The notes under the pieces: model-generated
The model's database searches: none
What the model saw: the letters and a program-made list of their open reading frames with translations, nothing else
What the model was told of the DNA's origin: nothing
Shown: one piece after another, positions 9,578 through 28,262 of the stretch
How positions within the stretch are numbered: the stretch's first letter is position 1
Layout of the letters: every line of letters starts with the position of its first letter
Assembly (NCBI GenBank): GCA_965195345.1
Contig: OZ239628.1
Span: 387,940 to 419,939, forward strand
Origin: an uncultured Thiomicrospira sp.
Lineage (GTDB): Bacteria; Pseudomonadota; Gammaproteobacteria; CAKMZV01
DNA length: 32,000 bases
Reading direction: 5' to 3'
Made by a program: the position numbers and the translations under genes

Positions 9578-9619
9578 TTATGTAAATTAGAATATTTTTG
9601 ATTTGTTTTTCAAACTAAA

Positions 9620-10000: not shown

Positions 10001-10023
10001 AGCCAATAGTTAGAGAGAATGCA

Positions 10024-10464
10024 ATGAGTATTGAAGCTATTATTGATAAATGGATTGACCAGTCAGGTCCTTTGTTGCCTATTTTGCTTGATGTCAAGAA
10101 AGAATATGGCTCTATCAGTGATGAGGCAATCGATGAGATAAGTAAAGGGCTAAATTTAAGCCGTGCTGAAGTATATGGAGTGGTTAGCTTTTATGAAGAT
10201 TTTCATCGTGACTCCCTCGTAAATTCTAAGGCAAAGCGCATTATAAAAGTATGCACTGCTGAAGCTTGTCAAGCTCAGGGTTGTCGTACGCTGGTCAACC
10301 AGTTGGAAGAAAAACACAAGCAGAAACTCAATGAGAAAGGAACAGATATCACTATTGAGTCGGTGTATTGTCTAGGAAACTGTGCGTTAGGTCCGAGTGT
10401 GATGTTAGGAGATTGCGTTTTTGGTAGAGCAACTTTGGAGAAAGTAGATAAATGGATAGCGTAA
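10024..10464 (+). CDS. fdsG: NAD-dependent formate dehydrogenase gamma subunit (NuoE-like 2Fe-2S); the ORF-track start is 9997
   Basis: Thioredoxin-like 2Fe-2S pattern CTAEACQAQG...CLGNCALGP; located directly before the beta subunit gene. Confidence 0.9.
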   Translation: MSIEAIIDKWIDQSGPLLPILLDVKKEYGSISDEAIDEISKGLNLSRAEVYGVVSFYEDFHRDSLVNSKAKRIIKVCTAEACQAQGCRTLVNQLEEKHKQKLNEKGTDITIESVYCLGNCALGPSVMLGDCVFGRATLEKVDKWIA

Positions 10465-11978
10465 AATTTTATATTCCATTCGACACCAGTGCAGTTTCTG
10501 TAGGAGCAAGCGCGGTGGCTGAGGCTGTGATGAAGGCTTATCCAAACACAACGATTGTACGTAATGGATCACATGGTGCTTTATGGCTTGAGCCTTTGGT
10601 TGAAGTGGAAAGCAAAGGCGTTCGATATGCTTTTGGCAATTGTTCTGTTGAATGCGTTAGCACATTGATTCAAAATGGTGCGATTAATACGCAACATGAA
10701 AACTATCTGGGTGAGACAAAATCTCTTGATTTCTTTGCTAGTCAAAAGCGGGTAGTGTTTGATAAGTGTGGCTGGATTGATCCTTTTGATTTCTCTCAGT
10801 GGTCAGCATATGGAGGAGGCGTTGGTTTAAGACATGCTGTTCAAATATCTGGTCAAGAAATTATAGACAATGTTAAGTCTTCAGGACTGCGCGGACGTGG
10901 AGGCGCAGCGTTTCCAACGGGAATAAAATGGCAGACGGTACATGATGCGCAAGCAGATCAGAAATACATAGTGTGCAATGCCGATGAAGGTGATAGCGGA
11001 ACGTATGCTGATCGAATGCTGATGGAAGGGGATCCACTAACACTCATAGAAGGGATGGCAATTGCTGGCGTTGCAGTCAATGCAACAGTAGGATTTATTT
11101 ACATTCGCTCAGAATATCCAATTGCCATTAAGCACTTTAAGAAAGCCATTCTGTTGGCTTATGAGAACAACATGTTAGGGCGCGATATATTCGGTAGCGG
11201 CAAGCACTTTGATATGGAAATTCGCGAGGGGGCGGGTGCGTATATATGCGGTGAAGAAACATCGTTATTGGAAAGCCTTGAAGGAAAACAAGGCACGATT
11301 CGTTTTAAACCACCATTGCCAGCTTTGGAAGGGATGCTGGGTAAACCAACGGTTGTTAATAATGTCATTAGCCTTGCGAGTTGTCCGTATATATTGTCTA
11401 ATCCGGGAAATTTTGAAAAGCTAGGTTGCAATCGTTCAACAGGAACGTTGACTGTACAACTATGTGGGAATGTTAGACATGGTGGTTTGTATGAAATGGA
11501 ATTTGGTTTTAATTTGAAAGATATGGTTGAGCAGATAGGTGGCGGTACGCTAACTGGCAAACCAGTGCGTACTATGCAAGTAGGAGGCCCGCTTGGTCCG
11601 TATTTGCATCCAGACGAATTTGATACTCCGTGTGATTATGAAGAATATGCAGCGAAGAAGTTGATGATTGGACATGGAGGAGTAGTTGTTTTTGATGATG
11701 ATGTTGATATGAGTGAACAAGCTAAGTTTTCTATGCAATTTTGTGCGGATGAGTCTTGTGGAAAATGCACTCCTTGTCGCATTGGGTCAACGCGTGGGGT
11801 AGAATTGATTGCTGCTATTCAAAAAGGTGAGAAAAGACAGCATTACAAATTAGTTTTAGAAGAATTGTGCGATACGATGGAAAAAACATCTTTATGCGCA
11901 ATGGGGGGGCTGACACCGATGCCCGTTATGTCAGCAGTAAATAAATTCCCTACTGACTTTGGGTTTGAAAAAGATTAG
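10452..11978 (+). CDS. fdsB: NAD-dependent formate dehydrogenase beta subunit (NuoF-like FMN/4Fe-4S)
   Basis: GLRGRGGAAFPTGIKW, CNADEGDSGTYADR, GAGAYICGEETSLLESLEG, ESCGKCTPCRIG. Confidence 0.95.
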   Translation: MDSVKFYIPFDTSAVSVGASAVAEAVMKAYPNTTIVRNGSHGALWLEPLVEVESKGVRYAFGNCSVECVSTLIQNGAINTQHENYLGETKSLDFFASQKRVVFDKCGWIDPFDFSQWSAYGGGVGLRHAVQISGQEIIDNVKSSGLRGRGGAAFPTGIKWQTVHDAQADQKYIVCNADEGDSGTYADRMLMEGDPLTLIEGMAIAGVAVNATVGFIYIRSEYPIAIKHFKKAILLAYENNMLGRDIFGSGKHFDMEIREGAGAYICGEETSLLESLEGKQGTIRFKPPLPALEGMLGKPTVVNNVISLASCPYILSNPGNFEKLGCNRSTGTLTVQLCGNVRHGGLYEMEFGFNLKDMVEQIGGGTLTGKPVRTMQVGGPLGPYLHPDEFDTPCDYEEYAAKKLMIGHGGVVVFDDDVDMSEQAKFSMQFCADESCGKCTPCRIGSTRGVELIAAIQKGEKRQHYKLVLEELCDTMEKTSLCAMGGLTPMPVMSAVNKFPTDFGFEKD

Positions 11979-11995
11979 GAAATCTGGAGATCGCC

Positions 11996-14779
11996 ATGAA
12001 ATATATTGACTTGACAGACTACGGAACGCCTGTTTCAAAAAATACTACTATGGTCAATTTGACTATAGATGGCGTTAATGTTAGGGTTGCAGAAGGGACG
12101 AGTTTGATGCGTGCTGCAATCGAAGGGGGAATTCATATCCCTAAACTGTGCGCAACGGATTCACTTAATCCTTTTGGCTCATGTCGTTTGTGTATGGTTG
12201 AAATAGTCGGTCGTCCTAATCCAGTTGCTTCGTGTCATACGAATGTGACTGAAGGGCTAATTATTCGCACACAAAACGAACAATTGGCGAAGTGGCGTAA
12301 GAATCTTATGGAGTTGTACATATCTGATCATCCTTTAGATTGTTTGACTTGTGCCGCTAATGGCGATTGTGAGCTACAGGATATGGCAGGAGTGGTTGGC
12401 TTGCGTGATGTGCGTTATCCTAAAGGAGGCATAACGCATTTGGAGCAAGAAAAAGACGAATCCAATCCTTATTTCACATTTGACCCAAGCAAGTGTATTT
12501 TGTGCTCTCGTTGTGTGCGTGCTTGCGATGAGGTGCAAGGAACATTAGCGTTAACCATAGAAAAGCGAGGATTTAACTCAAAAGTTTCAGTGGCAAATGT
12601 TGACTTTATGGCTTCTGATTGCGTTTCGTGTGGCGCATGTGTTCAAGCCTGTCCAACAGCTACGTTGATGGAAAAAAGTGTTATTGCATTCGGTTTGGGT
12701 GAGAACAAAACAATTACCACTTGTGCTTATTGCGGAGTAGGTTGTAATTTTGTTGCACACACTCAAGGCGAACAAGTGACGCACATGGTGCCTTATAAAG
12801 ACGGGAAAGCGAACCATGGTCACTCTTGTGTTAAAGGGCGATTTGCTTGGCAATATGCGACCCATGAAGAACGAATAACAAAACCTTTAGTCCGTGAGAG
12901 TATTCATGATGAATGGAGAGAGGTTAGTTGGGATGAAGCTTTTGAGTTTGCTGCAACAAGGTTGAAGAATATCCAAGAAAAATACGGTGTTGATTCGATT
13001 GGAGGTATTACTTCGTCGAGGTGTACTAATGAGGAAACCTATTTGGTGCAAAAACTCGTACGAGCTACTTTTAAAAATAACAATGTTGATACTTGTGCTC
13101 GAGTTTGTCATTCACCCACAGGATATGGACTAAAACGTACTTTTGGAGCATCGGCAGGCACTCAAAATTTTGACTCAGTACAGCATACTGATTTGATCTT
13201 TGTAGTTGGAGCCAACCCTACGGATGCGCATCCAGTGTTTGGATCTCGTATGAAACGTCGTTTGCGTGAAGGGGCGCAGTTAATAGTGCTTGATCCACGG
13301 CAAATAGATTTGGTCAAAAGTCCTCATATTAAAGCGAATGTGCACTTGCCCCTAACTCCAGGAACAAATGTTGCTGTTCTTAATGCTATCGCTCACACGA
13401 TCGTTAAGGAAGGACTGCAAGATCAAGATTTTATAAGCAAACGCTGTGATTTAGACACCTTTAAAGATTGGCTAACCTTTATTCAACATGAAAAAAATGC
13501 ACCTGAGACGATCGCCTCTCAATCAGGACTGGACGTAAATGACATTAAAAAAGCAGCAAGGCTGTATGCTAAAGCACCGAATGCTGCGATTTACTATGGG
13601 TTGGGAGTTACGGAGCATTCGCAAGGGTCTTCAACAGTAATGGCAATAGCTAATTTGGCAATGTTGACAGGGAATATTGGTCGAGAAGGTGTTGGTGTTA
13701 ACCCATTACGTGGACAAAATAATGTACAGGGCGCATGTGATATGGGTTCTTTCCCTCATGAGTTGCCCGGTTATCGTCACGTTGGTGATCCTAAAGTACG
13801 CGAATTATTCGAATCAGAGTGGGATGTTGAATTGTCCGCTGATCCTGGATTGCGCATTCCTAATATGTTTGATGCCGCCACTGCTGGTTGGTACAAAGGC
13901 ATGTATATTCAGGGTGAAGACTTAGTGCAATCTGATCCGAACTCTCATCATGTGATAAAGGCCTTTGAAAACATGGAGTGCGTTATAGTCCATGATCTGT
14001 TTTTGAATGAAACGGCTAAATACGCACATGTTTTTTTTCCAGGAGCTTCCTTTTTGGAAAAAGATGGAACATTTACTAACGCAGAAAGGCGTGTTAATCG
14101 TGTTCGTAAAGTCATGTCACCGTTAGGTGGTATGTCAGAGTGGGAAGTAATCTGTGCTTTAGCAAAAGCAATGGGGTACTCAATGGAGTACAACCATCCT
14201 AGTGAAATCATGGATGAAATTGCGCGAACTACTCCAGGATTTGCTAATGTAAGCTATGACTTGCTTGATGAGAAAGGAAGTATTCAATGGCCTTGCAATG
14301 ACGCATCACCAGAAGGGACGCCTATTATGCACCAAGAATATTTTGTGCTTGGTAAAGGACATTTTATCAATACTGAATACGTGCCCACAAGTGAAAAAAC
14401 CAATCGTAAATATCCCTTATTACTTACTACTGGACGAGTATTGCATCACTATAACGTAGGCACACAAACGAGGCGCACGGCCAATTCAAAGTGGCAACCA
14501 GAAGACATATTAGAAATTCATCCAAGCGATGCGGAGTCAAGAGGTATTGTTGACGATATGCGCGTTGCAGTCACTTCACGCTCAGGTGAAACTTATTTGC
14601 ACGTGCGCGTTTCAGAAAAAATGGAACCAGGTGTTGTTTATACAACTTTTCATTTTCCAGAAAGCAATACCAATGTTATTACTACGGATAATTCAGATTG
14701 GGCAACAAACTGTCCCGAGTACAAGGTGACGGCTGTGGAAGTTCGTCCTCATGATCAGGCTATTCCTAAAGTTGGGTGA
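11996..14779 (+). CDS. fdsA: NAD-dependent formate dehydrogenase catalytic alpha subunit (molybdenum, Fe-S)
   Basis: N-terminal NuoG-like clusters and 2x[4Fe-4S] (CILCSRCVRACDE, CVSCGACVQACP), CAYCGVGCNF, active-site-like CARVCHSPTGYGL, C-terminal molybdopterin-binding region. Confidence 0.96.
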   Translation: MKYIDLTDYGTPVSKNTTMVNLTIDGVNVRVAEGTSLMRAAIEGGIHIPKLCATDSLNPFGSCRLCMVEIVGRPNPVASCHTNVTEGLIIRTQNEQLAKWRKNLMELYISDHPLDCLTCAANGDCELQDMAGVVGLRDVRYPKGGITHLEQEKDESNPYFTFDPSKCILCSRCVRACDEVQGTLALTIEKRGFNSKVSVANVDFMASDCVSCGACVQACPTATLMEKSVIAFGLGENKTITTCAYCGVGCNFVAHTQGEQVTHMVPYKDGKANHGHSCVKGRFAWQYATHEERITKPLVRESIHDEWREVSWDEAFEFAATRLKNIQEKYGVDSIGGITSSRCTNEETYLVQKLVRATFKNNNVDTCARVCHSPTGYGLKRTFGASAGTQNFDSVQHTDLIFVVGANPTDAHPVFGSRMKRRLREGAQLIVLDPRQIDLVKSPHIKANVHLPLTPGTNVAVLNAIAHTIVKEGLQDQDFISKRCDLDTFKDWLTFIQHEKNAPETIASQSGLDVNDIKKAARLYAKAPNAAIYYGLGVTEHSQGSSTVMAIANLAMLTGNIGREGVGVNPLRGQNNVQGACDMGSFPHELPGYRHVGDPKVRELFESEWDVELSADPGLRIPNMFDAATAGWYKGMYIQGEDLVQSDPNSHHVIKAFENMECVIVHDLFLNETAKYAHVFFPGASFLEKDGTFTNAERRVNRVRKVMSPLGGMSEWEVICALAKAMGYSMEYNHPSEIMDEIARTTPGFANVSYDLLDEKGSIQWPCNDASPEGTPIMHQEYFVLGKGHFINTEYVPTSEKTNRKYPLLLTTGRVLHHYNVGTQTRRTANSKWQPEDILEIHPSDAESRGIVDDMRVAVTSRSGETYLHVRVSEKMEPGVVYTTFHFPESNTNVITTDNSDWATNCPEYKVTAVEVRPHDQAIPKVG

Positions 14780-14806
14780 ATACAGGAAACTAAAAGGTAT
14801 TATTTC

Positions 14807-15019
14807 ATGAAACAATCACGATTTGACCCCGATCGCATTGTATCGCTCGCTAATCAAATAGCTGAAAATCAATTTGGTATGAGTGAGACTGAGGCAGTGA
14901 AGATGGTGGCGACGCATATTAATGCTTTTTGGAACTCCAGCATGAAACAAGTTTTACATTCGTTGGACGAAAAAAAACTACACCCATTTTGTGCAAAAGC
15001 GCTTGAAGATATTAACTGA
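14807..15019 (+). CDS. fdsD: Formate dehydrogenase delta subunit
   Basis: FDPDRIVSLANQIAENQF...EAVKMVATHINAFWNSSMKQVL matches the FdsD pattern; directly follows fdsA. Confidence 0.85.
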   Translation: MKQSRFDPDRIVSLANQIAENQFGMSETEAVKMVATHINAFWNSSMKQVLHSLDEKKLHPFCAKALEDIN

Positions 15020-15164: not shown

Positions 15165-16394
15165 ATGTTTTTTTCATGTAATAAGATAAAGAAAGATGTT
15201 TTTAAATCTTCAAAGATGCTTTTTTTGGGAGCATACTTTGTTATTTTATTGTCATCTGCTTTCATGACATTACCCGCGAATGCCGACGAACACGAACAGG
15301 CTACAGAAACCTCAACAAATACTATTCAGCCAAGAGAACAAGCAAAAAAAGAAAATCCAGAGGTGCTGCCCTCTCACTTGCCGATTAAGAATATTCAATT
15401 CACTCCCTCTAAAAAAGAAAAAATTTTCTTTCATCATAACGATGAAAGAGACGAAGAACTTAGGGTGATCATATTGCAACAATTATTTGATCCTCTATTA
15501 TGGGAAAAGGCAAAAGTGAGCGCCATACAGTCAAAAATTGAATCTGCTTATATTGTTTATGATGATTCTAAAGGGGAGCGACAACATAGCCCTGATTTTT
15601 ACGATAGCTTAGAAAGCGCTCTGCTTAAAAAGATGGTTCAAACTACAGATATATCATTCAAAGGATGTGCTTACTCTTGTGTGCAGAAAAAAACAATCAC
15701 CATAACACAAAGTCGCTTGATTATTAGTACGAAGAACTTAAATAGACGCATTCGAAAAGAAATTGAATCGGGTGAAGTACAGGGCATTTTAAAATGGAGT
15801 TTCTTCTCAAATGCAGCTGGCAGTAAAGGAGGAATATCTGTTAGCCTACTCAATGCAAACAATAAGATTGTTTGGACCGATACGATTTTTGCAGACATTA
15901 ATGAGTTAATAGTAGCTGACGAAAACAAAGCGTCAGAAGGTGAAAGCCAATTAGGTATAGCATTGATGAGTCAGAGAATTCAGTTTGAAGAAGGAACGGA
16001 TCCAGTAACAGAATCAAACCAAAATGTTGTGGTGAGTTTTGGTTATAGAGAACGCATTACACCGTTCACCAGACTTAAATATTATTTAGGGGGGCGTGTG
16101 CTGTATAGCACTGGTTTAGCAAATAACTATTTTGCCATTTCAGCGAGTGCTCGTATAGGTTATACCATTTTTAATCTGCCCAAACGCGACGTTGATTTTT
16201 TCATAGGATTCGAGCAAGACCTCATATTAGTTCAAGGATTTAATGGCACACTTGCTGTAGATTGGCAGCTGAGTGATGCTTTTTATTTGCGAGGGATTTA
16301 TGAGCTGCCGTTGGATTCAGAACGCACAGATAATTTTGGTCAAGAGTATACCCTTAGTCCGGGTTTTTTGTTAGAAATGGGGGTTAAACTGTGA
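15165..16394 (+). CDS. Secreted/outer-membrane protein of unknown function; mixed N-terminal domain and C-terminal beta-strand-rich region. First gene of the putative motor cluster; start uncertain
   Basis: Signal-like MLFLGAYFVILLSSAFMTLPANA; alternating amphipathic segments from about ERITPFTRLKYYLGGRVLY to the C-terminus. Its stop overlaps the next gene by 4 nt. Confidence 0.6.
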   Translation: MFFSCNKIKKDVFKSSKMLFLGAYFVILLSSAFMTLPANADEHEQATETSTNTIQPREQAKKENPEVLPSHLPIKNIQFTPSKKEKIFFHHNDERDEELRVIILQQLFDPLLWEKAKVSAIQSKIESAYIVYDDSKGERQHSPDFYDSLESALLKKMVQTTDISFKGCAYSCVQKKTITITQSRLIISTKNLNRRIRKEIESGEVQGILKWSFFSNAAGSKGGISVSLLNANNKIVWTDTIFADINELIVADENKASEGESQLGIALMSQRIQFEEGTDPVTESNQNVVVSFGYRERITPFTRLKYYLGGRVLYSTGLANNYFAISASARIGYTIFNLPKRDVDFFIGFEQDLILVQGFNGTLAVDWQLSDAFYLRGIYELPLDSERTDNFGQEYTLSPGFLLEMGVKL

Positions 16395-16960
16395 ACGGGC
16401 TTAAAATATTATTTATCATCTCTGCAGTGATTTTTTTGTCAGGCTGCAGTTCAACAGAAGAGTTACAAACTTTGGATGCGGGCAGAGCAATCAAAGAGGG
16501 AGACGGTAAGGAAAATCTACCCTCGTCATTAATTGTTGAAAATGGCGTTATTTTTTTTAGAAAAGAAAGTGGTGGTGAAAAAATCGAATTTATTTTTAAT
16601 ATTGGTGAAAATGAAAACATCGAGTACGAGATAGAATTTGCTCCCCCTGAGAAAGAAAAGAGCGATCATCTTCCTGCCCAAAATAGTACCTCTGTAAGTG
16701 GCGAGTCTAAAAAGCTTGCGGATCGATTATTCCTATCTGCACAAGGCTATTTTTTAGAAGGAAATTATCGTCGAGCTTTGGTTGAGGTTAATCGAGCGCT
16801 ACGAGAAGACATGAAGTCTGGACTTCTTTGGGCTTTAAAGGGTTCCATACACTATAAGCTTAATGAATTTGGATTGGCACGCAATGCATGGAGTAAGTCG
16901 CAGGAATTAGACAAAGATATTACAGGCGTTCGAGAAATGTTATTAAAAATAGGGACGTAA
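16391..16960 (+). CDS. Lipoprotein with TPR-like repeats (GTG start)
   Basis: MNGLKILFIISAVIFLSGCSS lipobox; TPR-like AQGYFLEGNYRRALVEVNRALREDMKSGLLWALKGSIHYKLNEFGLARNAWSKSQELD. Confidence 0.75.
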   Translation: MNGLKILFIISAVIFLSGCSSTEELQTLDAGRAIKEGDGKENLPSSLIVENGVIFFRKESGGEKIEFIFNIGENENIEYEIEFAPPEKEKSDHLPAQNSTSVSGESKKLADRLFLSAQGYFLEGNYRRALVEVNRALREDMKSGLLWALKGSIHYKLNEFGLARNAWSKSQELDKDITGVREMLLKIGT

Positions 16961-16988
16961 TTAAGAATTAATTTGTGAGTATGAAACC

Positions 16989-19172
16989 ATGAAAAGTTTT
17001 TTTGTAAAAATCATAGCAAATGTAGTCACTATTTTTGTGATTGCCGTTACGGGGGTACATGCACAAGAGATTGAACGAGCAGGGCAAGTAGATGCCATAA
17101 AGCAGAGTGTTTTTGAGCGGGATTTGGAAAATAATATTAGCAGTGCGCTCAGGTTACAGCTCGGTAGCATTCCTTTTTTGGTTCAAGTGAGTGCTGAATT
17201 GCGCTCGATAAAAACATACGCGATTGATACTGTCTCCATATATCAGCCGAGTTCTGTTGAAGCGCCTTCTCTTGAAAGTAAAAAAACAATTGTGAGACAA
17301 CAGCTGCAAGAAGTTGATGCTGGTAGAACGAATCAAAACATTGATCCTGCTGACGATGGAGGCCAAGGTATTTCAAATGCTTTGCCAGGAGCCCCAATTC
17401 TTTTGACGAATAGTGACGATGGATCTGAGCAAAATCAGCCGAGAAGAAGTCAACCTATAACTGAGGTCATTCAATCAACTGAGCCTATCAGTGAAGCGTC
17501 AGAAAGTCAACCGAGAAGTGTTGGTCGATTTGTGAATACCACCCGTGAAACGTTCATTGAAAGTCATGTGTTAATTGACAGAATTGACGTCAAGCTATGG
17601 CTTCCATCTGATTTGGAACCTAGTAGAATTCGTTTTCTCAAACACTTGGTTTCTGAAAAAGCAAGAATTAATTTAATAAGGGGCGATCAGTTTACAACTA
17701 TTTTAACAAATTTTCCAGAAACTGAAAAAAAGGAAGATACCCTAACAACTAACCAGAATAGCTCAACTGAGTCTATAAATATTGATAATATTGGTCGGAG
17801 AATAGGATTAGATAGAGTAGTAAGTGAGCTGAGTCAAAACAATTGGTTACCTTGGGCGCTTGCTGGGTTACTCTTTTTATGGTTATTGTTTTTGCTTTTC
17901 CGCAAAAAAAGAACCGCGCATCACCAACCGCCGATCGCAACGTACCATCACAGCGATGTTCCATTTAACCCTCCATCATTAACGAACATCAACCCTCCTG
18001 AATCCGCATCTCTTGAAGATAAACAACAAGATCACGAACATAAACAGCGATTGAAAATTCTTAATGAAGACATAGTGAGTAATATCATGCTGCATGAAGG
18101 GTTGTTGCTGAATGCGCTAAATAACCCTAACCTTGCAATAGAAAAAGTACGATTTACGGCTTGGTTGATTAAATTGCTTGGCACAGCCGTGGTTGCAAAG
18201 TATGCATATGATCAGCTTAATGAAAGCGAATTAAAAAACGCGAATGCGTTGCAAGAAGTTATTGAACAAAGCACATTGATAGAACAATGTGAATGGGCAG
18301 CAAAGGTGCATAGAAGCTTACGCGATAGTGAGTCGCTTTCTAATAAAAATATTTCCCAACCTTTTGATTTCTTAAATGAAATGAATGATCAGAAATTGAA
18401 ACGCTTGCTAAATGAAGAGCATGTGCAGGCAAAAGCACTGATACTTTCTCAAATTGATCAACGACGCTCGGCAGCAATCCTTGCTATGTTTTCTGCTGAG
18501 GAACAAGCAAGTATTGCCATAGCAATGGGGAAACTTACGACACTTCCAGTATCTTCATTTCATGACATAGCTAATCAATTAGCTCGTAAGGCTCAAAGCA
18601 TTCCAGAAGTAAATGAGCTTAACATTGATGGAACGGAAGCGCTAGTGCAGATGATAGAGTCCATGGATTTGGCGAATGGAACAGCGTTCCTGAATGAATT
18701 GAGAAAACAAAATCCTGATCAATATTATCGCATTAAGAAATTGTATATGGGCTTTGAGGATATTCCAAAAATTCCGAAGGCTATATTGAAAAACTTTTTG
18801 CGTGAAATTGAACGAGAAGAGTTGGTTACGGCACTGTACGATGAGGAAGATGCTTTTAGAGAACAGTTACTCAGTGCGCTTCCTGATCGAGCAAAGGCAT
18901 TAGTTCAGCAGTTATTGAGTGAAATACAAACACCAACTGCAGCAAAGATTATGCAATCGAAAAAAATGATTAGCACCAAAGCAAGGCAGTTATTGCGAGC
19001 TAAAGTATTTGAATTACCAACAGATGAAGAGACCTTCACAGCGTCTTCAACATCTGAAGCAGGGCTACAAGAAGAGTCTATAGTTCCCTCTATAGAGGTT
19101 GAGTCAAGGCTTTCGGAAGAGTCAAACACAGGGTCAAGAAGCTCCTCAAACCTTAATAACTTAGAAAAATGA
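16989..19172 (+). CDS. Membrane protein: FliF C-terminal-like periplasmic region plus transmembrane helix fused to a cytoplasmic FliG-like region
   Basis: Signal peptide; FliF-like FERDLENNISSALRLQLGSIPFLVQVSAELRS and ...RIDVKLWLPSDLEPSRIRFLKHLVSEKARINLIRGDQFTTILTNFP; single TM WLPWALAGLLFLWLLFLLFRKKR; FliG-like FEDIPKIPKAILKNFLREIEREELVTALYDEEDAFREQLLSALPDRAKALVQQLL. Confidence 0.75.
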   Translation: MKSFFVKIIANVVTIFVIAVTGVHAQEIERAGQVDAIKQSVFERDLENNISSALRLQLGSIPFLVQVSAELRSIKTYAIDTVSIYQPSSVEAPSLESKKTIVRQQLQEVDAGRTNQNIDPADDGGQGISNALPGAPILLTNSDDGSEQNQPRRSQPITEVIQSTEPISEASESQPRSVGRFVNTTRETFIESHVLIDRIDVKLWLPSDLEPSRIRFLKHLVSEKARINLIRGDQFTTILTNFPETEKKEDTLTTNQNSSTESINIDNIGRRIGLDRVVSELSQNNWLPWALAGLLFLWLLFLLFRKKRTAHHQPPIATYHHSDVPFNPPSLTNINPPESASLEDKQQDHEHKQRLKILNEDIVSNIMLHEGLLLNALNNPNLAIEKVRFTAWLIKLLGTAVVAKYAYDQLNESELKNANALQEVIEQSTLIEQCEWAAKVHRSLRDSESLSNKNISQPFDFLNEMNDQKLKRLLNEEHVQAKALILSQIDQRRSAAILAMFSAEEQASIAIAMGKLTTLPVSSFHDIANQLARKAQSIPEVNELNIDGTEALVQMIESMDLANGTAFLNELRKQNPDQYYRIKKLYMGFEDIPKIPKAILKNFLREIEREELVTALYDEEDAFREQLLSALPDRAKALVQQLLSEIQTPTAAKIMQSKKMISTKARQLLRAKVFELPTDEETFTASSTSEAGLQEESIVPSIEVESRLSEESNTGSRSSSNLNNLEK

Positions 19173-19948
19173 AAACACTAATTAGTCGATTAATAGCAAT
19201 GGCTTTGGTAGGGTACGCAGCTTACAGCATTATTGTTTTTCCAGAGCATACAGCTCTTTTTACGCATGCAGAATCAGTGATTTTGGTATTGGGTGGTACA
19301 TTCGCAGCAAGCCTGATGAGCTTTAATATTGAGACAATATTGAAGGCATTTTTAAGCTTTTTTAAAGGTCTTATTTATGCCTCAGACAATCAGTCAAAGA
19401 TCAGAGAAATAAAAGAAATCATTACAATTGCAGAACGCGTTAATGAAACAAACGGATTCGGATGTATTGATGATATGTTAGAACAAAAAAAAAAATATTC
19501 AGATTTTGTGCGATTAGGATTAGAGCTGATTTCTGCGGGTTACAGCGAAGTTGGACTTAGAGTACAGCTAACAAATTTTGCAGATGAACTAGATGAAGAA
19601 GAGCGTTTGATGGAAGACGTTTGGTTTCAATTTGCAAACTATGCTCCAGCTTTGGGAATGGTTGGAACAGTTATAGGGTTGATTCTTATGTTGGATAATC
19701 TTGATGTCAATAGTTTAAATATTGGAGCTGGACTTTCATTGGCACTGTTGACTACTTTGTACGGTGTTTGTATAGCGAACTTTATTTTCAAACCAACTGC
19801 TCGGTTTTTAGCTGAAGAACGATTGAAAAAATCCAGAAATTTAGCACTTTATTTAGAAGCAATGCTAATGGTACAAAAAAAAACAAGTCCAATTTTAATG
19901 AAAGATTACTTAAATAGTAGCTTGCCTATTAAATTGCAATTAAAGTAA
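19169..19948 (+). CDS. MotA/PomA-like stator protein
   Basis: Four hydrophobic segments, ESVILVLGGTFAASL near TM1-2, and ANYAPALGMVGTVIGLILML, typical of MotA TM3. ATGA overlap with the preceding gene. Confidence 0.88.
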   Translation: MKTLISRLIAMALVGYAAYSIIVFPEHTALFTHAESVILVLGGTFAASLMSFNIETILKAFLSFFKGLIYASDNQSKIREIKEIITIAERVNETNGFGCIDDMLEQKKKYSDFVRLGLELISAGYSEVGLRVQLTNFADELDEEERLMEDVWFQFANYAPALGMVGTVIGLILMLDNLDVNSLNIGAGLSLALLTTLYGVCIANFIFKPTARFLAEERLKKSRNLALYLEAMLMVQKKTSPILMKDYLNSSLPIKLQLK

Positions 19949-20014
19949 TGTTAAGAATAAGCCTAAAATCAACTTCTGTGAAGATTGATTTTTCGTAACT
20001 AAGGATACGGCTTC

Positions 20015-20734
20015 ATGAATTCAGTTTTACGCAAAAAAAAGTCTATCAATAGAACAGATAACCTTTGGTTAATAACCTATTCAGATGTTGTGACGTTACT
20101 GTTGGTTTTTTTTGTGCTAATCATCGCTTTTTCAGTCGTTGATCAATCTAAATTTGAAGTGATTGCTGAAGCCATAAAAGCAAATAAGTTCGATGGGAAA
20201 AAGACGCTTCCTTTTCAAAAATTTGAACAAGAATTGCAAAAAATTATCGAAAAAAATGATTTAGAAGAAAAGGTTGTTGTAAATAAACAACCTCTAGGCG
20301 TTAGTATTGAACTTTCTGGTGAAAGTCTATTCCAATCTGGAGAAGCTATTTTGAATGCAACGGGTAGCCTCGCAATAAAACAATTAGCGAAGGCTATAAA
20401 AAACATTGAATATCCTAACTATCAAGTAGAGATTGAAGGACATACCGATGATGTGCCAATAAATAATGAGAAATACTCTTCCAATTGGGAATTGTCTGTC
20501 TTTCGCGCCATTGATGTGCTTAAGCTGTTAACAGAGCAGGGAATACCCAATGATAAATTCAAAATAGCTGGTTACGGAGAAACAAAACCTAAATATTCAA
20601 ATGAAACGGCTGATGGTTTACCTAATGTCGCTAACAGAGCTAAAAACAGACGAATAGAGATTAATGTTTTTCGTAAGGAGCGGCGTTATAGGGAATCGTC
20701 AACAAAAGAGGAAAATCAAAACACAGAAAAGTAG
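20015..20734 (+). CDS. MotB/PomB-like stator protein with OmpA-type peptidoglycan-binding domain
   Basis: N-terminal TM with acidic residue WLITYSDVVTLLLVFFVLIIAFS; C-terminal VEIEGHTDDVPINNEKYSSNWELSVFRAIDV...ANRAKNRRIEINVF. Confidence 0.9.
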   Translation: MNSVLRKKKSINRTDNLWLITYSDVVTLLLVFFVLIIAFSVVDQSKFEVIAEAIKANKFDGKKTLPFQKFEQELQKIIEKNDLEEKVVVNKQPLGVSIELSGESLFQSGEAILNATGSLAIKQLAKAIKNIEYPNYQVEIEGHTDDVPINNEKYSSNWELSVFRAIDVLKLLTEQGIPNDKFKIAGYGETKPKYSNETADGLPNVANRAKNRRIEINVFRKERRYRESSTKEENQNTEK

Positions 20735-20794
20735 TTTTTATAATATTTTTTGATTTTTGGCACGCATTGAGACTATTTTTAAGCAGGTTCTAAA

Positions 20795-22210
20795 ATGCAA
20801 AGAAAGGGTATGGGATTCATATTTAACCGAATAAATGCTCTTACTTTTTCTAGTATGAGAAAAAAAAATCCAATTCTACTGGTCTGCTCTTTTGTGGTGT
20901 TTCTCTCCTTCCCTATAAAAGCAACGAGCAATTTTCAACCTTCCCAATTGAGAACTTTGTTTAATCCTGCCGCTGAGAATCCATCAGCAGCAGTTATCTA
21001 CAGTTACTTATTCAATGATAGTGATATCGGGTTGCAAGTATATGGAGAAGCGCAAGGACTAGTAGAAAACACCATAGATGAGAATCAACTTCTAATGGAG
21101 TTGAACGGTATTATAAATTCTAATATTGGCGTTAATTCTATTAATCAATTTGAAACACAAATAAATAATTTCCTTAGAACTACTCAACCTATTCTTCGTG
21201 GTAATGCAAACGCAATCCTCGCTTTTCGAAAAGGATCAAATACAAAAAAAACTGCTGTCACTCTTAGTTATGATGATAGTCTCTTGTACTATCAACAATT
21301 GCGATTTATCAATGGCGTTGATGTTGATGTGCCGGCAGTAACAGCCTTAATTGCGGGCAACACGACCATTGATTCTGCAGATTTTTTGAACGCTATTGAT
21401 ACTGATGTGGGCATTAATAATACATTGGCACGTATCAGAACGTTCAGCTTAGGATATAGCCATCGCTACACGATTAATCCAATAATTAAATTCAGCTATG
21501 GTGTGCGTTTTAAAGCACAATCGGCATCTATTTCTTCAAACTTGGTGGACTTTCGAACAGTTATATCCACGACCAATGAGGTAGTTCAGTTAGAAAGTGC
21601 TGATATATTTGGAAATTTTGACACAGCAAACGAGCATATATATGGTAATGTTGATTTAGCTCTAACATTGCATGGAAGACAATATTTTATAAGCATATAC
21701 TCACTGGATACCATACCGCAAAGGTTAGCATTACCAAGTTTTTCCGATACATGCGAGTCTGTAAATGATTGTGCTATATCAGCACTGTATCCAAATGGGA
21801 ATGAGTTTTTTTATATCGACCCTAAAGTGCGTTTTGAATACAGCTATCTGTCACGACGCAAGCAATTTCGCTTTAGCTTTTTGTACGATATACTCCCTTG
21901 GAGAGATGGAAGTACTGCCGAGCGCCAACTGCTAACTATCCATACTGAAATTGCGACGACTAAGCGAAACACTAATAGACCCTATTGGGGACATCCCTCC
22001 CCTTCGATAAGGCTATCTGCTTTTATAGATGATGCTTCTTCTTTCGTGAATGATACTCTTATTCAGACAGGGTTCAGTGCATGGTTTATAGATTTAAACT
22101 TCACATTTGGCTTTAGAAAACCAGGTATATTAGTCTCTAGACCATCTAGAATTGAGAACAGCAGGACACTTCTACGCGGCATTCAGTTGGGAGTTAACGT
22201 TGATTTTTAA
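20795..22210 (+). CDS. Predicted outer-membrane beta-barrel protein of unknown function
   Basis: Signal-like MRKKNPILLVCSFVVFLSFPIKA, many alternating-hydrophobicity strands, C-terminal ...LLRGIQLGVNVDF ending in Phe. Follows the MotB-like gene by about 60 nt. Confidence 0.6.
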   Translation: MQRKGMGFIFNRINALTFSSMRKKNPILLVCSFVVFLSFPIKATSNFQPSQLRTLFNPAAENPSAAVIYSYLFNDSDIGLQVYGEAQGLVENTIDENQLLMELNGIINSNIGVNSINQFETQINNFLRTTQPILRGNANAILAFRKGSNTKKTAVTLSYDDSLLYYQQLRFINGVDVDVPAVTALIAGNTTIDSADFLNAIDTDVGINNTLARIRTFSLGYSHRYTINPIIKFSYGVRFKAQSASISSNLVDFRTVISTTNEVVQLESADIFGNFDTANEHIYGNVDLALTLHGRQYFISIYSLDTIPQRLALPSFSDTCESVNDCAISALYPNGNEFFYIDPKVRFEYSYLSRRKQFRFSFLYDILPWRDGSTAERQLLTIHTEIATTKRNTNRPYWGHPSPSIRLSAFIDDASSFVNDTLIQTGFSAWFIDLNFTFGFRKPGILVSRPSRIENSRTLLRGIQLGVNVDF

Positions 22211-22224
22211 AAGCGATATTCTTA

Positions 22225-22812
22225 TTATTTTACAGAATCGATTAATTCCATTAAATTGCCTTTATGCATTCTAATTTCATCTTCAGATAAGCCGACTAAT
22301 TCGTGAGGGAATACTAGCCAGTCGGTTGTTTTATGCACGTGAAAATCGGGTTCAATAACTGTTTGATTATTATTTGGTTTGTAATAAGCAGTGGCAATCT
22401 TTATTTTGGGAGTGTTTTTTCGGCAATGAAGTTTGATGTCATTTACCACCTGCTGGATACTCAAACCAGTATCAAAAACATCGTCAACGATGAGTAAAGA
22501 ATCGGTATCATTAACGTTTTCAATAATATAGTGTAGGCCATGAACGCGGATATTACGTTCACGCTCAGCAATACCAGTATAAGAAGAAGTACGTATGGCG
22601 ATGTGATCGGTTTTAATGCCAAGATATTGTAGCAACTCCTGTACGGCAATACCGACGGGTGTTCCTCCACGCCATATTCCGACAATGTAGTTTGGGACGA
22701 AGTTGCTTTTGTGGATTTCAATGGCTAGTTGGTAAGAAACATCAAGCAATTCTTGGCTGCTTAAGTATACTTTAGGGACGGTTTCCTTGTTGTCTGGGTG
22801 GTTAGTTGACAT
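22225..22812 (-). CDS. Hypoxanthine-guanine-type phosphoribosyltransferase; start chosen at MSTNHPDN, the ORF-track start is 22875
   Basis: IVGIWRGGTPVGIAVQELL and PRPP loop SLLIVDDVFDTGLSIQQV. Confidence 0.85.
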   Translation of the reverse strand: MSTNHPDNKETVPKVYLSSQELLDVSYQLAIEIHKSNFVPNYIVGIWRGGTPVGIAVQELLQYLGIKTDHIAIRTSSYTGIAERERNIRVHGLHYIIENVNDTDSLLIVDDVFDTGLSIQQVVNDIKLHCRKNTPKIKIATAYYKPNNNQTVIEPDFHVHKTTDWLVFPHELVGLSEDEIRMHKGNLMELIDSVK

Positions 22813-22813
22813 A

Positions 22814-23425
22814 TTACTCCATGTTTTTTTTGTGCTGATTGTAAACAATAAGGCTATGAAAAATAATTTGGGCAAGTAAAGAAGTTATGATTTGTTGAGT
22901 AAAAGCAGAGATGATGCAAAATATAAGTCCACCGATTGCCGCACTCAACCATTCTTTGCTTGGGCAGAAACGCCAAAGAGACCAAGCTAAAGTACTGACT
23001 ATGATGACTTTCCAAGAGGGCAGTTCATAGAACCAATTAAAGATGCTTGCACGAAATAGTAATTCCTCACCAAGAGGAATTAAGGCAACAAATACAAAAA
23101 TTGCGATAGGGTTTTTACCGCCACAAAAAACAGGTAACTTGAAAAAGTGAAATGAAAGCATGAACAAAACCGCACCCAAGAAAATACCCAGCAGTAATGC
23201 TAATGGCATGCTCGAAGTGAATAAGTAATCTTCAAAGTCAAATACAAAGTCTTCGCGTGTGAAAAACCATGCAAAGTAAAACCCAATCAAAATGACGAAG
23301 CGCAAGCGCATGATAGAAACGGATAGAAGATCGCTTTTTTTACTAATTTTAGCCAACAAAAATATTGCTAATATAAGCATTCCAGGTGTAAAAAGCCAAA
23401 TTAGATTAAGAATTGTTTCGGTCAT
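22814..23425 (-). CDS. CPBP-family intramembrane glutamic protease
   Basis: Multiple TM helices; EELLFRASIFNWF (EExxxR) and C-terminal FHSLIVY. Confidence 0.75.
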   Translation of the reverse strand: MTETILNLIWLFTPGMLILAIFLLAKISKKSDLLSVSIMRLRFVILIGFYFAWFFTREDFVFDFEDYLFTSSMPLALLLGIFLGAVLFMLSFHFFKLPVFCGGKNPIAIFVFVALIPLGEELLFRASIFNWFYELPSWKVIIVSTLAWSLWRFCPSKEWLSAAIGGLIFCIISAFTQQIITSLLAQIIFHSLIVYNQHKKNME

Positions 23426-24884: not shown

Positions 24885-25490
24885 CTATTTAAAACTATCC
24901 AAGATAGACTTCAACTCCTTTGGATTAGGGTTCGTATGTTTCAAATTATTAAAGATACCTTTTAGTTGATCGCAAGCACTTTTAAAATCGGCGTTAATTA
25001 TTAAGTAGTCGTATTTTGTATGGTTTTTAATCTCATTACGCGCTTCTTGTAAACGTCGTGATATGACATCAATCGCATCGGTAGAACGCGCACGTAGGCG
25101 AGTTGCTAAAGTTTGAAAATTAGGAGGGATGATGAAAATACTTTGGGTATCACTTTTCTTTGAGCGAATTTGATCCGCGCCCTGCCAGTCAATTTCAAGT
25201 ACAACATGCTTACCATTATCTAAGTTTTTTTCCACAGTGCTTCGTGCAGTGCCATAAAGATTACCAAACACATAAGCATATTCCAAAAAAGCATCTTGTT
25301 CGATGAGTTCTAAGAATTTTTGTTCATTAACAAAGTAGTAATTTTCGCCATCAGTCTCATTATTGCGAATAGGTCGAGTCGTGTGAGAAATAGACAAAAC
25401 CGTATTGTTCAACTCACTAAGAGCACTTGCAAGAAGGGAGGATTTGCCTGTTCCAGAAGGAGCAGATACTATAAAAAGTGTCCCTCGCAT
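24885..25490 (-). CDS. gmk: Guanylate kinase
   Basis: P-loop IVSAPSGTGKSSLL; SHTTRPIRNNETDGENYYFV; LEIDWQGADQIR. Confidence 0.97.
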   Translation of the reverse strand: MRGTLFIVSAPSGTGKSSLLASALSELNNTVLSISHTTRPIRNNETDGENYYFVNEQKFLELIEQDAFLEYAYVFGNLYGTARSTVEKNLDNGKHVVLEIDWQGADQIRSKKSDTQSIFIIPPNFQTLATRLRARSTDAIDVISRRLQEARNEIKNHTKYDYLIINADFKSACDQLKGIFNNLKHTNPNPKELKSILDSFK

Positions 25491-25504
25491 ATTCTAAAAA
25501 GGAG

Positions 25505-26629: not shown

Positions 26630-26637
26630 GGGTTAGT

Positions 26638-27963: not shown

Positions 27964-28207
27964 TCGTTCTCCTATTTGTTGGTCGGTTTTAAAAAAAGCC
28001 TCACGGTTTGCTTTTCTTTGAAAATATTATAGATGTCAAGTTATTTTTATATTTCTAAAACAGCATTCAAAAACAAGATTTTATTGATGGTTTTTATGCG
28101 TGACTATCAGGTCAGTATTTTGCATTATTTGCCGATGAAATGTTGTAAAAAATCACGTAAAAAAACTTTTCATTTCATCACAAATTGTTAAAAAAACGTT
28201 AATAATT

Positions 28208-28216
28208 TGTGCATAA
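28208..28216 (-). promoter_or_regulatory. DnaA box (TTATGCACA on the minus strand)
   Basis: Exact match to TTATNCACA in the AT-rich region upstream of dnaA. Confidence 0.5.
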
Positions 28217-28262
28217 CTTGAAGAAAAGGAATAAAAGCGTATCGTTGTACCTTTGCAACGAT

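Follow-up and report, generated by a model that had tools for sequence, protein, structure and literature searches.

A compact cluster of six genes, within a window of 32,000 nucleotides from an uncultured Thiomicrospira sp., encodes a FliF-FliG fusion, a flagellar-type stator pair and putative outer-membrane partners. Our preferred reading, held with middling confidence, is that the cluster encodes a rotor-stator machine that is complete in itself, works without a flagellum and is coupled to the outer membrane. This proposal builds on four observations: the identities of the domains, the topology, the conserved linkage of the genes and purifying selection.

The ORF list confirmed six ORFs on the + strand (ORF1 to ORF6 at 15165-16394, 16391-16960, 16989-19172, 19169-19948, 20015-20734 and 20795-22210). 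The spacing given in an earlier, sequence-only reading of this DNA was correct as well: ORF1/ORF2 and ORF3/ORF4 overlap by 4 nt (16391/16394 and 19169/19172), and the gaps elsewhere measure 28, 66 and 60 nt. Because of the placement of the signal peptides, the true starts of ORF1 and ORF6 may be the internal Met18 (15216) and Met21 (20855). The cluster is flanked by housekeeping genes and no other flagellar gene lies inside the window. The same reading had noted the absence of export apparatus, rod, hook and flagellin genes from the window, and the domain calls agree: no export-gate, rod, hook, flagellin, FliM or FliN domain was found in the other domain-assigned ORFs of at least 110 aa. FdsA was assigned via the gene table of locus L001, the cut ORF at the 3' end of the window is PhoH-like by eye, and a 652-aa ORF at 725-2683 gave no match in a Pfam search.

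The FliF-FliG fusion and its stator

ORF3 (727 aa, 16989-19172, + strand) is a natural fusion of a truncated FliF, with RBM3 only, and a full FliG, which makes it a putative rotor subunit. It contains, in order, a signal peptide or TM1, an RBM3-type periplasmic ring domain, TM2, a FliF C-tail and a complete FliG (N, M, C). There are just two hydrophobic segments (residues 5-23 and 286-304). The first falls in the signal peptide or TM1 (residues 1-25, …VHA followed by QE; 16989-17063, from hydropathy). Among the first 60 family members, about half have an N-terminal hydrophobic segment that reaches the threshold used. The second is TM2 (17844-17900), which aligns to that of FliF. The first half of RBM3, a helix and a strand, was placed by family profile and hhalign at residues 40-75 (17106-17213; FERDLENNISSALRLQLGSIPFLVQVSAEL). 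The second half (residues 196-243, 17574-17717; IDRIDVKLWLP…EKARINLIRGDQFTTILTNFP) pairs with FliF …IERLSVAVVV…SDKRGDTLNVVNSPF in the profile and hhalign alignments, and its R231, G232 and D233 vary little or not at all across the family. The low-complexity stretch between the halves (residues 76-195) holds a conserved LPGxP motif at 132-136. A FliF C-tail-like helix (residues ~350-384) precedes the FliG N-domain equivalent (residues 385-455, 18141-18353), assigned by hhalign and a weak profile match to FliG_N chain 5tdy_B. The FliG middle domain, with EHVQ replacing EHPQ, spans residues 456-545 (18354-18623; PF14841, E 6e-12; PDB FliG alignments), and the C-domain with its torque helix (…PDRAKALVQQLLSEIQTP…) residues 570-680 (18696-19028; PF01706, E 1e-16; T. 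maritima FliG alignment).

The FliF/FliG match and the MotA/MotB pair claimed in the sequence-only reading were thus upheld, profile searches and hhalign finding a match of ORF3 to both FliF and FliG. The M and C domains of FliG exceeded the Pfam gathering scores and the PDB FliG match reached E 5e-13. The FliF part was not detected by Pfam from the single sequence. The family profile matched Salmonella FliF 233-558 (E 8e-13); a profile of the N-terminal part only matched FliF 234-534 (E 8e-4) in an alignment that takes in RBM3a, the PGxP motif, RBM3b (RGD…F) and TM2, and 14 out of 30 family members matched PF08345 individually. In hhalign, the family was linked to unfused FliF-like proteins (probability 96.5%, E 7.5e-10) and to unfused full-length FliG (100%, E 9e-40), the latter alignment spanning N, M and C (window residues 385-681 with FliG 9-305).

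ORF4 (259 aa, 19169-19948, + strand) is a MotA/PomA-type stator A subunit with four TM segments (PF01618, E 2e-17) and the conserved motifs GMVGT in TM3 and LLTTLYG in TM4. Its best NCBIfam match is PomA (E 3e-33), against E ~1e-3 only for the TolQ/ExbB models, and PomA in the PDB (8bri) is matched over residues 12-251 (E 1e-24). ORF5 (239 aa, 20015-20734, + strand) is a MotB-type B subunit with one TM holding the channel Asp24 (nt 20084-20086), a plug (MotB_plug, E 2e-15) and an OmpA-like peptidoglycan-binding domain (E 3e-19); it matches NCBIfam MotD at E 1e-48. All NCBIfam equivalog-level cut-offs, including those for PomA and MotD, were missed by the cluster proteins. Judged by these matches, the stator is of the flagellar and not of the Tol/Exb type. 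The channel Asp is kept in all nine partner MotBs. In the nine partner MotAs, the column of PomA E96 is acidic in eight and that of R88 is Arg in seven, ORF4 having Asn at the latter position.

A Zorya-like anti-phage system on a MotAB-type motor is hardly credible. PADLOC ZorB models do match ORF5 (E 6e-23), and ZorA matches ORF4 weakly (E 7e-4), but these matches reflect generic MotB/MotA similarity and the flagellar models score far better. With 259 aa, ORF4 falls short of the ZorA profiles (413-550 positions) and so is without the long C-terminal extension; ZorC, ZorD and other effectors are absent, and the surroundings are housekeeping genes and no defence island.

Two features of flagellar rotors are missing from ORF3. 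RBM1 and RBM2 are absent; as the part of FliF housing the export gate, which is enclosed by RBM2 (PMC11739650), their loss fits the absence of export genes. Furthermore, the family conserves neither the FliM-binding EHPQR motif nor the two acidic residues of the torque helix: E. coli FliG D288/D289 correspond to Q/L in the window protein and the equivalent of R297 is lost. This makes a switch function unlikely and implies a modified rotor-stator interface. Together with the Asn in the MotA R88 column, these changes mean that no more than part of the canonical electrostatic interface is kept.

The same features bear on another reading, in which the cluster would be an accessory or alternative rotor-stator set serving an ordinary flagellum whose genes lie in another part of the genome. 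One such arrangement would be a second stator equipped with a FliG paralogue and a periplasmic scaffold of its own, in the manner of PflA/PflB, MotX/MotY or FlgP. Every recognisable domain is flagellar and the IMG annotation of family members is 'flagellar motor switch protein FliG'. Stator scaffolds made of TPR and Sel1 proteins are known, and in loci L005 and L008 the gene before MotA encodes a Sel1/SPOR protein. However, a FliF part without RBM1 and RBM2 cannot stand in for FliF as the housing of the export gate, a 1:1 FliF-FliG fused ring would rival the genuine MS-ring and not complement it, the EHPQR motif is unconserved, and no flagellar genes adjoin the module in any distinct locus inspected. 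This reading is considered improbable.

Putative outer-membrane partners

ORF1 ('X'; 409 aa, 15165-16394, + strand) and ORF6 (471 aa, 20795-22210, + strand) are secreted, putative outer-membrane barrel proteins, the first small and the second larger. The label is plausible and relies on sequence heuristics: an N-terminal signal-peptide-like segment as sole hydrophobic stretch, runs of amphipathic beta-like segments and beta-signal-like C-termini (…GVNVDF in ORF6, …GYRF/GFRF in ORF1 homologues). In ORF1, the signal-peptide-like segment (residues 18-36) is followed by a periplasmic N-domain, in which Cys168 and Cys172 form a conserved pair, and by a beta-rich C-terminal region (residues 286-409) of ~8 amphipathic segments. 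No match was found in Pfam, NCBIfam or PDB, but ORF1 is homologous to proteins of ~360-390 aa adjoining FliF-FliG elsewhere (hhalign probability 90%, E 1.7e-6), with which it has the conserved C..C motif in common. ORF6 has ~16 amphipathic segments and ends in …GIQLGVNVDF; Pfam, NCBIfam, PADLOC and PDB searches gave no relative.

ORF2 (189 aa, 16391-16960, + strand) is the TPR lipoprotein that the sequence-only reading had proposed, with an LSGC lipobox (LPAM_1; Cys19, Ser at +2) and a C-terminal two-repeat TPR module (TPR_2, E 2.5e-6). The TPR partner bears a lipobox in all loci of the fused type. In the unfused variant, the module recurs at the end of a 455-aa barrel-like protein (40% identity over 65 aa, E 1e-11). 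The TPR module is thus predicted to be tethered to the outer membrane in two ways, by the lipobox in fused-type loci and, where FliF and FliG are unfused, by being joined to a barrel-like domain.

Gene linkage and selection

Many uncultured bacteria carry the same module. ORF3 belongs to a large, uncharacterised family in which its layout is shared by at least 119 clusters at 50% identity; among the best 150 representatives at this identity, 122 have at least 500 aa, 119 a mid-protein TM, 96 an RGD before this TM and 110 an LPG. Genes for the ORF1-like protein, TPR lipoprotein, FliF-FliG, MotA and MotB are linked, in shuffled order, in seven independent arrangements (window/L001, L002, L005, L008/L014/L015, L009/L010, L012/L013 and L022), where the neighbours of the module are always unrelated genes. 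In L002, the six-gene unit sits between miaA/NUDIX and ksgA/apaH. Co-occurrence of the six genes in relatives, which the sequence-only reading had named as a check, was found for five; ORF6 is confined to the window, its 98% twin L001 and L002, a relative with 42% identity. The conserved unit therefore consists of five genes, with ORF1 and ORF2 as core members and ORF6 as an accessory, lineage-restricted gene. An unfused variant (TPR protein, MotA, MotB, FliF-like, FliG) occurs in L016-L021. Counting against the preferred reading, no stator gene is adjacent at L003, L004 and L024; at L006 a LysR-type gene lies downstream where MotA is expected and the upstream side ends at the contig end.

Purifying selection acts on all six genes, with dN/dS versus L001 of 0-0.20 (ORF1 0.17, ORF3 0.16, ORF4 0.04, ORF6 0.20), no non-synonymous change in ORF5 and a pooled pN/pS of 0.12. 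A decaying, now functionless leftover from a flagellar operon that a shrinking genome has lost would agree with the small host chromosome (~1.92 Mb) and the presence of only a subset of flagellar functions. It is strongly disfavoured and very improbable: the six ORFs are intact with low dN/dS, functional residues are conserved, non-flagellar partner genes belong to the module, and in this large, old family even members with less than 25% identity retain architecture, motifs and partners.

Polysaccharide export genes (BBP2_2, Wza, Wzz, Wzy) lie directly after the module in L008. They are in line with a reading in which the ORF3 ring is static, a trans-envelope conduit or tether like SpoIIIAG that would connect the barrel proteins with the inner membrane, while MotAB and FliG would provide ion-motive energy for Tol-Pal/Ton-like gating, transport or outer-membrane stabilisation. 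The shared fold proposed for FliF RBM3 and the sporulation protein SpoIIIAG (PMC4768692), the outer-membrane direction of the partners and the non-canonical torque-helix charges point the same way. Nevertheless, a complete FliG with C-domain and a plugged flagellar-type stator are maintained by purifying selection, and the module conserves no cargo, ATPase or TolA/TonB-like spanning protein. A FliG C-domain with a flagellar-type stator means rotation in every known case, and the static ring is regarded as doubtful.

Proposed mechanism and comparison with known systems

In the preferred rotor-stator reading, we infer ring assembly, rotation, the contacts of ORF1 and ORF2 with the ring and the output. 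The RBM3 domains of ORF3 subunits would form an inner-membrane ring with an S-ring-like periplasmic face; isolated Salmonella FliF RBM3 makes rings alone (PMC8786727). Because FliG is covalently attached, this ring would also carry a FliG ring on its cytoplasmic face. MotA/MotB (ORF4/ORF5) would be anchored to peptidoglycan by the OmpA-like domain, and ion flow past Asp24 would make them push the FliG C-domain, so that the ORF3 ring is turned or strained. Torque may then be handed on in the periplasm to the outer-membrane-tethered ORF2 and the barrel-like ORF1, and here to ORF6 too. With RBM1/RBM2, FliM/FliN, rod, hook and filament absent, it would not be spent on spinning a filament; candidate outputs at the outer membrane are movement of a surface component, transport or envelope energisation.

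No described equivalent of the FliF-FliG/MotAB module was found in the open-access papers and preprints searched, in line with the unfamiliar composition noted from the sequence. As a recurrent combination of a torque-making flagellar core with outer-membrane-directed partners, it may be an undescribed ion-driven envelope machine. As in the flagellar rotor with MotAB/PomAB, RBM3, TM2, FliF C-tail and FliG N/M/C are present in homologous form, the A subunit is PomA-like with 4 TM segments, and the MotB combines a plug, the channel Asp and a domain that binds peptidoglycan. Unlike in the flagellum, FliF and FliG are on one polypeptide without RBM1/RBM2, the EHPQR motif and acidic torque-helix pair are unconserved, export gate, FliM/FliN, rod, hook and filament genes are missing from the module, and a TPR lipoprotein and barrel-like proteins are linked to it.

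The head-to-tail topology of ORF3 is that of FliF-FliG fusions engineered in Salmonella and Vibrio; those of Salmonella also support motility. These are laboratory constructs with full-length FliF in a complete flagellum, whereas ORF3 is natural, N-terminally truncated and outside flagellar loci. Engineered fusions are reported to form rings in Vibrio (PMC10941966, PMC11481574) and in non-motile expression hosts (PMC6079021). A natural joining of a shortened FliF to FliG sequence, as in ORF3, is known from the Chlamydiaceae, bacteria thought to be non-flagellated (Bergeron 2016, PMC4768692). That fusion of ~330 aa has RBM2, one further RBM-like domain and the FliG M region only; it was discussed as an injectisome partner (PMC4768692) and has no linked MotAB. 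Members of the ORF3 family, by contrast, have ~600-730 aa, RBM3 only, a full FliG and linked MotAB.

Elaborate motors have periplasmic scaffolds such as the TPR proteins PflA/PflB, Vibrio MotX (Sel1-like)/MotY, the FlgP lipoprotein and the TPR proteins of the spirochaete collar. TPR/Sel1 proteins and lipoproteins are likewise encoded beside the stator genes of the module, but ORF1 and ORF2 have no family match beyond generic TPR, and the known scaffolds decorate a complete flagellum. TolQR-Pal, ExbBD-TonB, AglRQS-Glt gliding, GldLM-T9SS and ZorAB are other 5:2 ion-driven motors that energise the envelope, and they share with the proposed machine the logic of an inner-membrane MotA/MotB-type motor coupled to outer-membrane proteins, TPR and barrel proteins included (compare Glt). 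None of them is known to have a FliF/FliG ring as driven element. Under the classification of PMC12505986, the A subunits of TolQR, ExbBD, AglRQS, GldLM and ZorAB belong to the 'generic' type and ORF4 to the flagellar PomA type.

Composition and surroundings of the gene cluster

Six ORFs on the forward strand were recovered in the ORF listing of the window, at the coordinates of the sequence-only reading: ORF1 (15165–16394), ORF2, a TPR lipoprotein (16391–16960), ORF3, the FliF-FliG fusion (16989–19172), ORF4, of MotA type (19169–19948), ORF5, of MotB type (20015–20734), and ORF6, a putative barrel (20795–22210). The 4-nt overlaps at 16391/16394 and 19169/19172 and the gaps of 28, 66 and 60 nt were also as that reading described. 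Hydropathy profiles showed only an N-terminal signal-like segment in each of ORF1, ORF2 and ORF6, an N-terminal segment and a single transmembrane (TM) segment at residues 286–304 in ORF3, four TM segments in ORF4 and one in ORF5, patterns which fit the roles assigned to the predicted proteins. The start codons of ORF1 and ORF6 are uncertain (15165–15216 and 20795–20855), as the signal peptides start only at the internal residues Met18 and Met21. The cluster is slightly less G+C-rich (0.35–0.40) than the flank upstream of it.

Immediately upstream, on the same strand, lies a complete operon for an NAD-dependent formate dehydrogenase (fdhD, DUF7009, fdsG, fdsB, fdsA, fdsD; 8771–15019, forward strand), with 145 nt between fdsD and ORF1. 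With this spacing and no convincing terminator, read-through co-transcription from the operon into the cluster is possible; promoter and terminator scans returned chance-level results only. The remaining genes of the window are housekeeping genes according to domain scans. Elsewhere in the window are msrA, a DAO/GCV_T dehydrogenase, pntAB and a 652-aa ORF without Pfam match (725–2683, reverse strand). Downstream, on the opposite strand, genes for a phosphoribosyltransferase, a CAAX protease and a U32 peptidase are found with gmk, dnaN, dnaA, lipB, clpP and tig, and the 3′ end of the window cuts a PhoH-like ORF. A 216-aa ORF (22225–22875, reverse strand) shares 62 nt (22814–22875) with the next ORF and is called at 195 aa in L001, a metagenome contig. 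Scans of the window for tRNA genes and Rfam families gave no match. In the dnaA region (24885–28262, reverse strand) gmk, not recF, directly follows dnaA and dnaN, and the 299-nt gap upstream of dnaA (27964–28262) is a candidate replication origin, which would put the likely origin some 6 kb away from the cluster. The host chromosome, bearing exact copies of the cluster proteins, measures 1,920,693 bp (NCBI/ENA), so that the host genome is small.

Domain scans found no other flagellar domain in the 32-kb window, where the sequence-only reading had seen no export apparatus, rod, hook or flagellin gene. Genes for the export gate (FlhA, FlhB, FliPQR), FliM/FliN, rod, hook and filament were absent from the window; related loci, too, lacked them in all flanks with domain annotation. 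A rival explanation takes the module for an accessory of a conventional flagellum.

Domain layout of the FliF-FliG fusion and its family

Both halves of the FliF/FliG fusion proposed for ORF3 were recovered by profile searches and hhalign. In the FliG part, FliG_M (PF14841; E 6e-12, 46.0 bits against a Pfam gathering cut-off of 25) and FliG_C (PF01706; E 1e-16, 61.6 bits against 23.3) were matched directly. With ORF3 alone, Pfam set FliG_N on the M region, below its cut-off; the FliG N-domain, which binds the FliF C-tail, is present by hhalign, in which ORF3 residues 385–681 correspond to residues 9–305 of unfused FliG proteins bearing PF14842. The family as a whole aligned with unfused FliG (hhalign 100%, E 9e-40), and the profile of a 30-member family alignment (A1) matched FliG structures at E 1e-38. 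ORF3 did not reach the FliG equivalog TIGR00207 (75.1 bits against a cut-off of 226.7).

For the FliF part, the window sequence alone gave no Pfam match, and PF08345 (YscJ_FliF_C) matched 14 of the 30 A1 members individually. Positions 37–332 of A1 aligned with residues 233–558 of Salmonella FliF (6scn_A; E 8e-13), and a profile built from only the N-terminal halves (A5) with residues 234–534 (E 8e-4). The A5 alignment pairs both halves of the periplasmic ring domain RBM3 (RBM3a and RBM3b), the PGxP motif, the ‘…RGDxLxV…F’ strand and TM2; the periplasmic motifs are conserved in A1 (n = 30). Compared with unfused FliF-like proteins bearing PF08345, the family aligned over ORF3 residues 39–244 (hhalign 96.5%, E 7.5e-10). 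In the family profiles, TM2 and a C-terminal tail come after the RBM3/YscJ_FliF_C region.

The other two ring domains of FliF, RBM1 and RBM2, in which the export gate is housed, are missing. No match to this region (SctJ homology, PF01514) was obtained in the window ORF3; the A1 members matched 41 families in all, and PF01514 was absent from the 25 commonest. The match begins at FliF residue 233–234 directly after the ORF3 signal peptide, leaving no RBM1/RBM2 stretch. From the family profiles and the hhalign comparisons with unfused FliF-like and FliG proteins, the predicted order reads: signal peptide or TM1, RBM3, TM2, FliF C-tail, and FliG N, M and C, without RBM1 and RBM2. The predicted protein thus pairs a ring-building periplasmic domain covalently with a complete FliG. 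Published cryo-EM work shows the RBM2 ring to enclose the export-gate complex (PMC11739650). Isolated RBM3 forms rings by itself (PMC8786727). Engineered FliF-FliG fusions assemble rings, according to the available text of three papers (PMC10941966, PMC11481574, PMC6079021).

A low-complexity, Q/P/S-rich stretch lies between the RBM3 halves (window 17214–17573, ORF3 residues 76–195). Family members differ here in both length and sequence, and only an LPG(x)P motif is invariant; this motif aligns with ‘VPGAL’ of the region inserted between the RBM3 halves in Salmonella FliF.

The family came to light with HMMER, in an exhaustive search over 1.84 billion representatives that gave 2,227 matches at E ≤ 0.001; queried with ORF3, with the family alignment or with the ORF1 family, word-indexed protein searches gave almost no match. 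Ordinary FliG is about 330 aa long. The best-scoring matches, at 560–820 aa and aligned to ORF3 over its whole length, are ruled out as ordinary FliG. Among the 150 best representatives, 122 are at least 500 aa long, 119 have a hydrophobic helix at residues 120–420, 96 carry RGD just upstream of this helix and 110 the LPG motif. As database labels of family members read ‘hypothetical protein’ or ‘FliG’, the present analysis corrects their annotation.

Stator, putative outer-membrane partners and conserved neighbourhood

ORF4 has a MotA_ExbB domain with four TM segments; among NCBIfam models PomA scores best (E 3e-33), and residues 12–251 were aligned with Vibrio PomA (E 1e-24). ORF5 combines MotB_plug, a TM Asp and an OmpA-like domain, with MotD as its best NCBIfam model (E 1e-48). 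Both missed the equivalog cut-offs (PomA 115 bits against 341, MotD 166 bits against 283). Residues were compared in nine MotA/MotB pairs encoded beside family members. The channel Asp of MotB (YSD; Asp24 in ORF5) is invariant in these pairs, and the TM3 ‘GMxGT’ and TM4 ‘TTLYG’ motifs are retained in the MotA partners. The column of PomA R88 holds Arg in seven of the nine MotAs, with Asn in ORF4 and an Arg two residues earlier; that of PomA E96 is acidic in eight of the nine (Asp in ORF4).

On the rotor side, the equivalent of E. coli R281 in the FliG torque helix is retained in ORF3. D288/D289 are replaced by Q/L in the window protein and variable across the family, R297 is lost, with A or T in its place, and an acidic residue reappears about one helical turn later. 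The FliM-binding EHPQR motif reads EHVQ in the window protein, and the family keeps the Glu alone; no sign of a FliM/FliN switch is seen in the predicted module. Judged by the residues kept and lost in the torque helix, EHPQR and the MotA columns, the rotor-stator interface is altered yet recognisable. Another rival explanation has the module act as a non-rotating conduit or tether.

Of the other proteins, ORF2 carries a lipobox and TPR repeats in the domain scan, and a lipobox is present in the TPR partner of every fused-type locus. ORF1 and ORF6 matched no Pfam or NCBIfam family, and neither ORF6 nor the ORF1 family had a relative in PDB profile searches. Similarity between ORF1 and ORF6 was not detectable. 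At other loci, the protein here called ‘X’ is an ORF1 homologue (hhalign 90%, E 1.7e-6) in which a Cys pair is conserved.

For pattern-based locus scans, A1 and a further alignment, A6, were too diverse; narrower alignments gave four genome loci and eight metagenome loci. The sequence-only reading had asked for co-occurrence of all six genes in relatives. This held for five (X, TPR, FliFG, MotA, MotB); among the loci inspected, ORF6 was found in the window, L001 and L002 only. L001 is 98% identical to the window and fully syntenic, and L002, a Gammaproteobacteria MAG with 42% ORF3 identity, has the same order, ORF1–TPR–FliFG–MotA–MotB–ORF6. X–TPR–FliFG–MotA–MotB is found in L009/L010 and L022, FliFG–X–TPR–MotA–MotB in L012/L013, and Sel1/SPOR–MotA–MotB–X–TPR–FliFG in L005 (Ectothiorhodospiraceae MAG) and L008/L014 (Gammaproteobacteria MAG). 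L015 follows the latter order from MotA on, its upstream side being cut, and the short contigs L006 and L011 show X–TPR–FliFG and TPR–FliFG. In L003, L004 and L024, FliFG has no adjacent stator. Flanking genes differ at every locus, the six genes of L002 lying between miaA/NUDIX and ksgA/apaH, so that the cluster behaves as a discrete unit. The linkage of the module is tight and ancient, and the sequence-only reading was largely right on composition and conservation. A decaying remnant, as a further explanation, is disfavoured by dN/dS ratios of 0–0.20 against L001 across all six genes.

An unfused variant was found in JGI metagenome contigs (L016:2216-9945, also L017–L021), in the order TPR (213 aa), CarboxypepD_reg (396 aa), barrel-like + TPR (455 aa), MotA, MotB, FliF-like and FliG. 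The FliF-like protein (579–617 aa) has PF08345 only, with a long coiled-coil-like stretch ahead of the TM segment; the 311-aa FliG has N, M and C domains and is followed by unrelated genes. The 455-aa protein ends in an ORF2-like TPR module (40% identity, 65 aa); its N-terminal part is barrel-like and showed no relation to the ORF1 family.

Some loci differ in their genes or neighbours. The Sel1-repeat and SPOR (peptidoglycan-binding) protein encoded directly before MotA in one branch (L005:2686-4281, L008:3137-4663) is a sixth gene in place of ORF6; it resembles the Sel1-like MotX stator scaffold of Vibrio. On two gammaproteobacterial MAG chromosomes of about 2.1 Mb (OZ255827.1, OZ255843.1), the fusion stands alone (L003:8992-12700, L004:8992-11316), with no MotAB, TPR or ORF1-like genes within 9 kb; that of L003 has an ABC-transporter operon on one side and a KAP-family P-loop NTPase on the other. 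Giant adhesin-like genes (He_PIG/FG-GAP/faint SprB; HYDIN/ASH Ig repeats) occur within 8 kb of two members (L007:1-5285, L009:1-850), and polysaccharide export genes (BBP2_2, Wza, Wzz, Wzy) directly after the module in another (L008:10614-16819). These are possible hints to the output, weak and inconsistent across loci. Two response-regulator genes precede the TPR and FliF-FliG genes at L023:84-1733, and PilZ and cNMP-binding genes adjoin a distant 814-aa member (L024:10823-11799); control by second messengers or a phosphorelay is possible.

A proposed envelope motor compared with known systems

To our knowledge, flagellar rotor and stator are known only as parts of the flagellum. The predicted stator is flagellar-type, plug-bearing and peptidoglycan-anchored, and the predicted partners are directed to the outer membrane. 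In the proposed machine, ORF3 subunits would form a membrane ring driven by MotAB units. As neither an export gate nor a rod or filament is encoded in the module, mechanical output would go to its outer-membrane partners, the TPR lipoprotein and the putative barrels. We put forward tentatively, as a reading somewhat short of probable, a free-standing ion-driven rotary motor in which MotAB turns a FliF(RBM3)-FliG ring and delivers torque to outer-membrane proteins without a flagellum. We regard the module as a putative flagellar rotor-stator core without a flagellum, and there is a substantial chance that it is a new kind of envelope machine.

A free-standing motor of this kind would belong to a class of envelope machine not recognised before and widespread among uncultured bacteria, and would be a candidate new route for ion-motive energy to the outer membrane. 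Models of flagellar origin dispute whether the torque-generating core could work without secretion apparatus and filament. A natural experiment on this dispute would be provided by a conserved, selected module that combines the FliF S-ring part, FliG and MotAB with partners at the outer membrane. Derived offshoot or pre-flagellar relative alike, such a motor would mean that type III secretion is not needed for the rotor-stator core to function. Being small (five genes, a single-polypeptide rotor), the module is attractive for reconstitution, cryo-EM and single-molecule torque work without the complexity of a full flagellum.

Among known ion-driven systems, the Zorya anti-phage system combines a ZorA with a long C-terminal tail and ZorC/ZorD or other effectors, a composition not found in the cluster. 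PADLOC gave generic ZorB and weak ZorA similarity only, with no other match among the six proteins, and Zorya was rejected; a Zorya-like defence system is accordingly a disfavoured explanation of the module. Tol-Pal and ExbBD-TonB pair an A subunit of TolQ/ExbB type with a spanning partner of TolA/TonB type. ORF4 scored E 0.007 with TolQ and E 0.002 with ExbB against E 3e-33 with PomA, and in the Pfam scan none of the cluster proteins had a TonB or TolA domain. In its available text, a survey of MotAB relatives splits them into flagellar and generic ion transporters and describes no FliG-linked non-flagellar module (PMC12505986); no description of the module was found in the open-access papers and preprints searched. 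The only natural FliF-FliG fusion described in these is chlamydial, the others being engineered. The chlamydial protein, of about 330 aa, has RBM2, an RBM-like domain and the FliG M region only, with no link to MotAB described (PMC4768692), whereas ORF3 is a protein of 727 aa with RBM3 only and FliG N, M and C.
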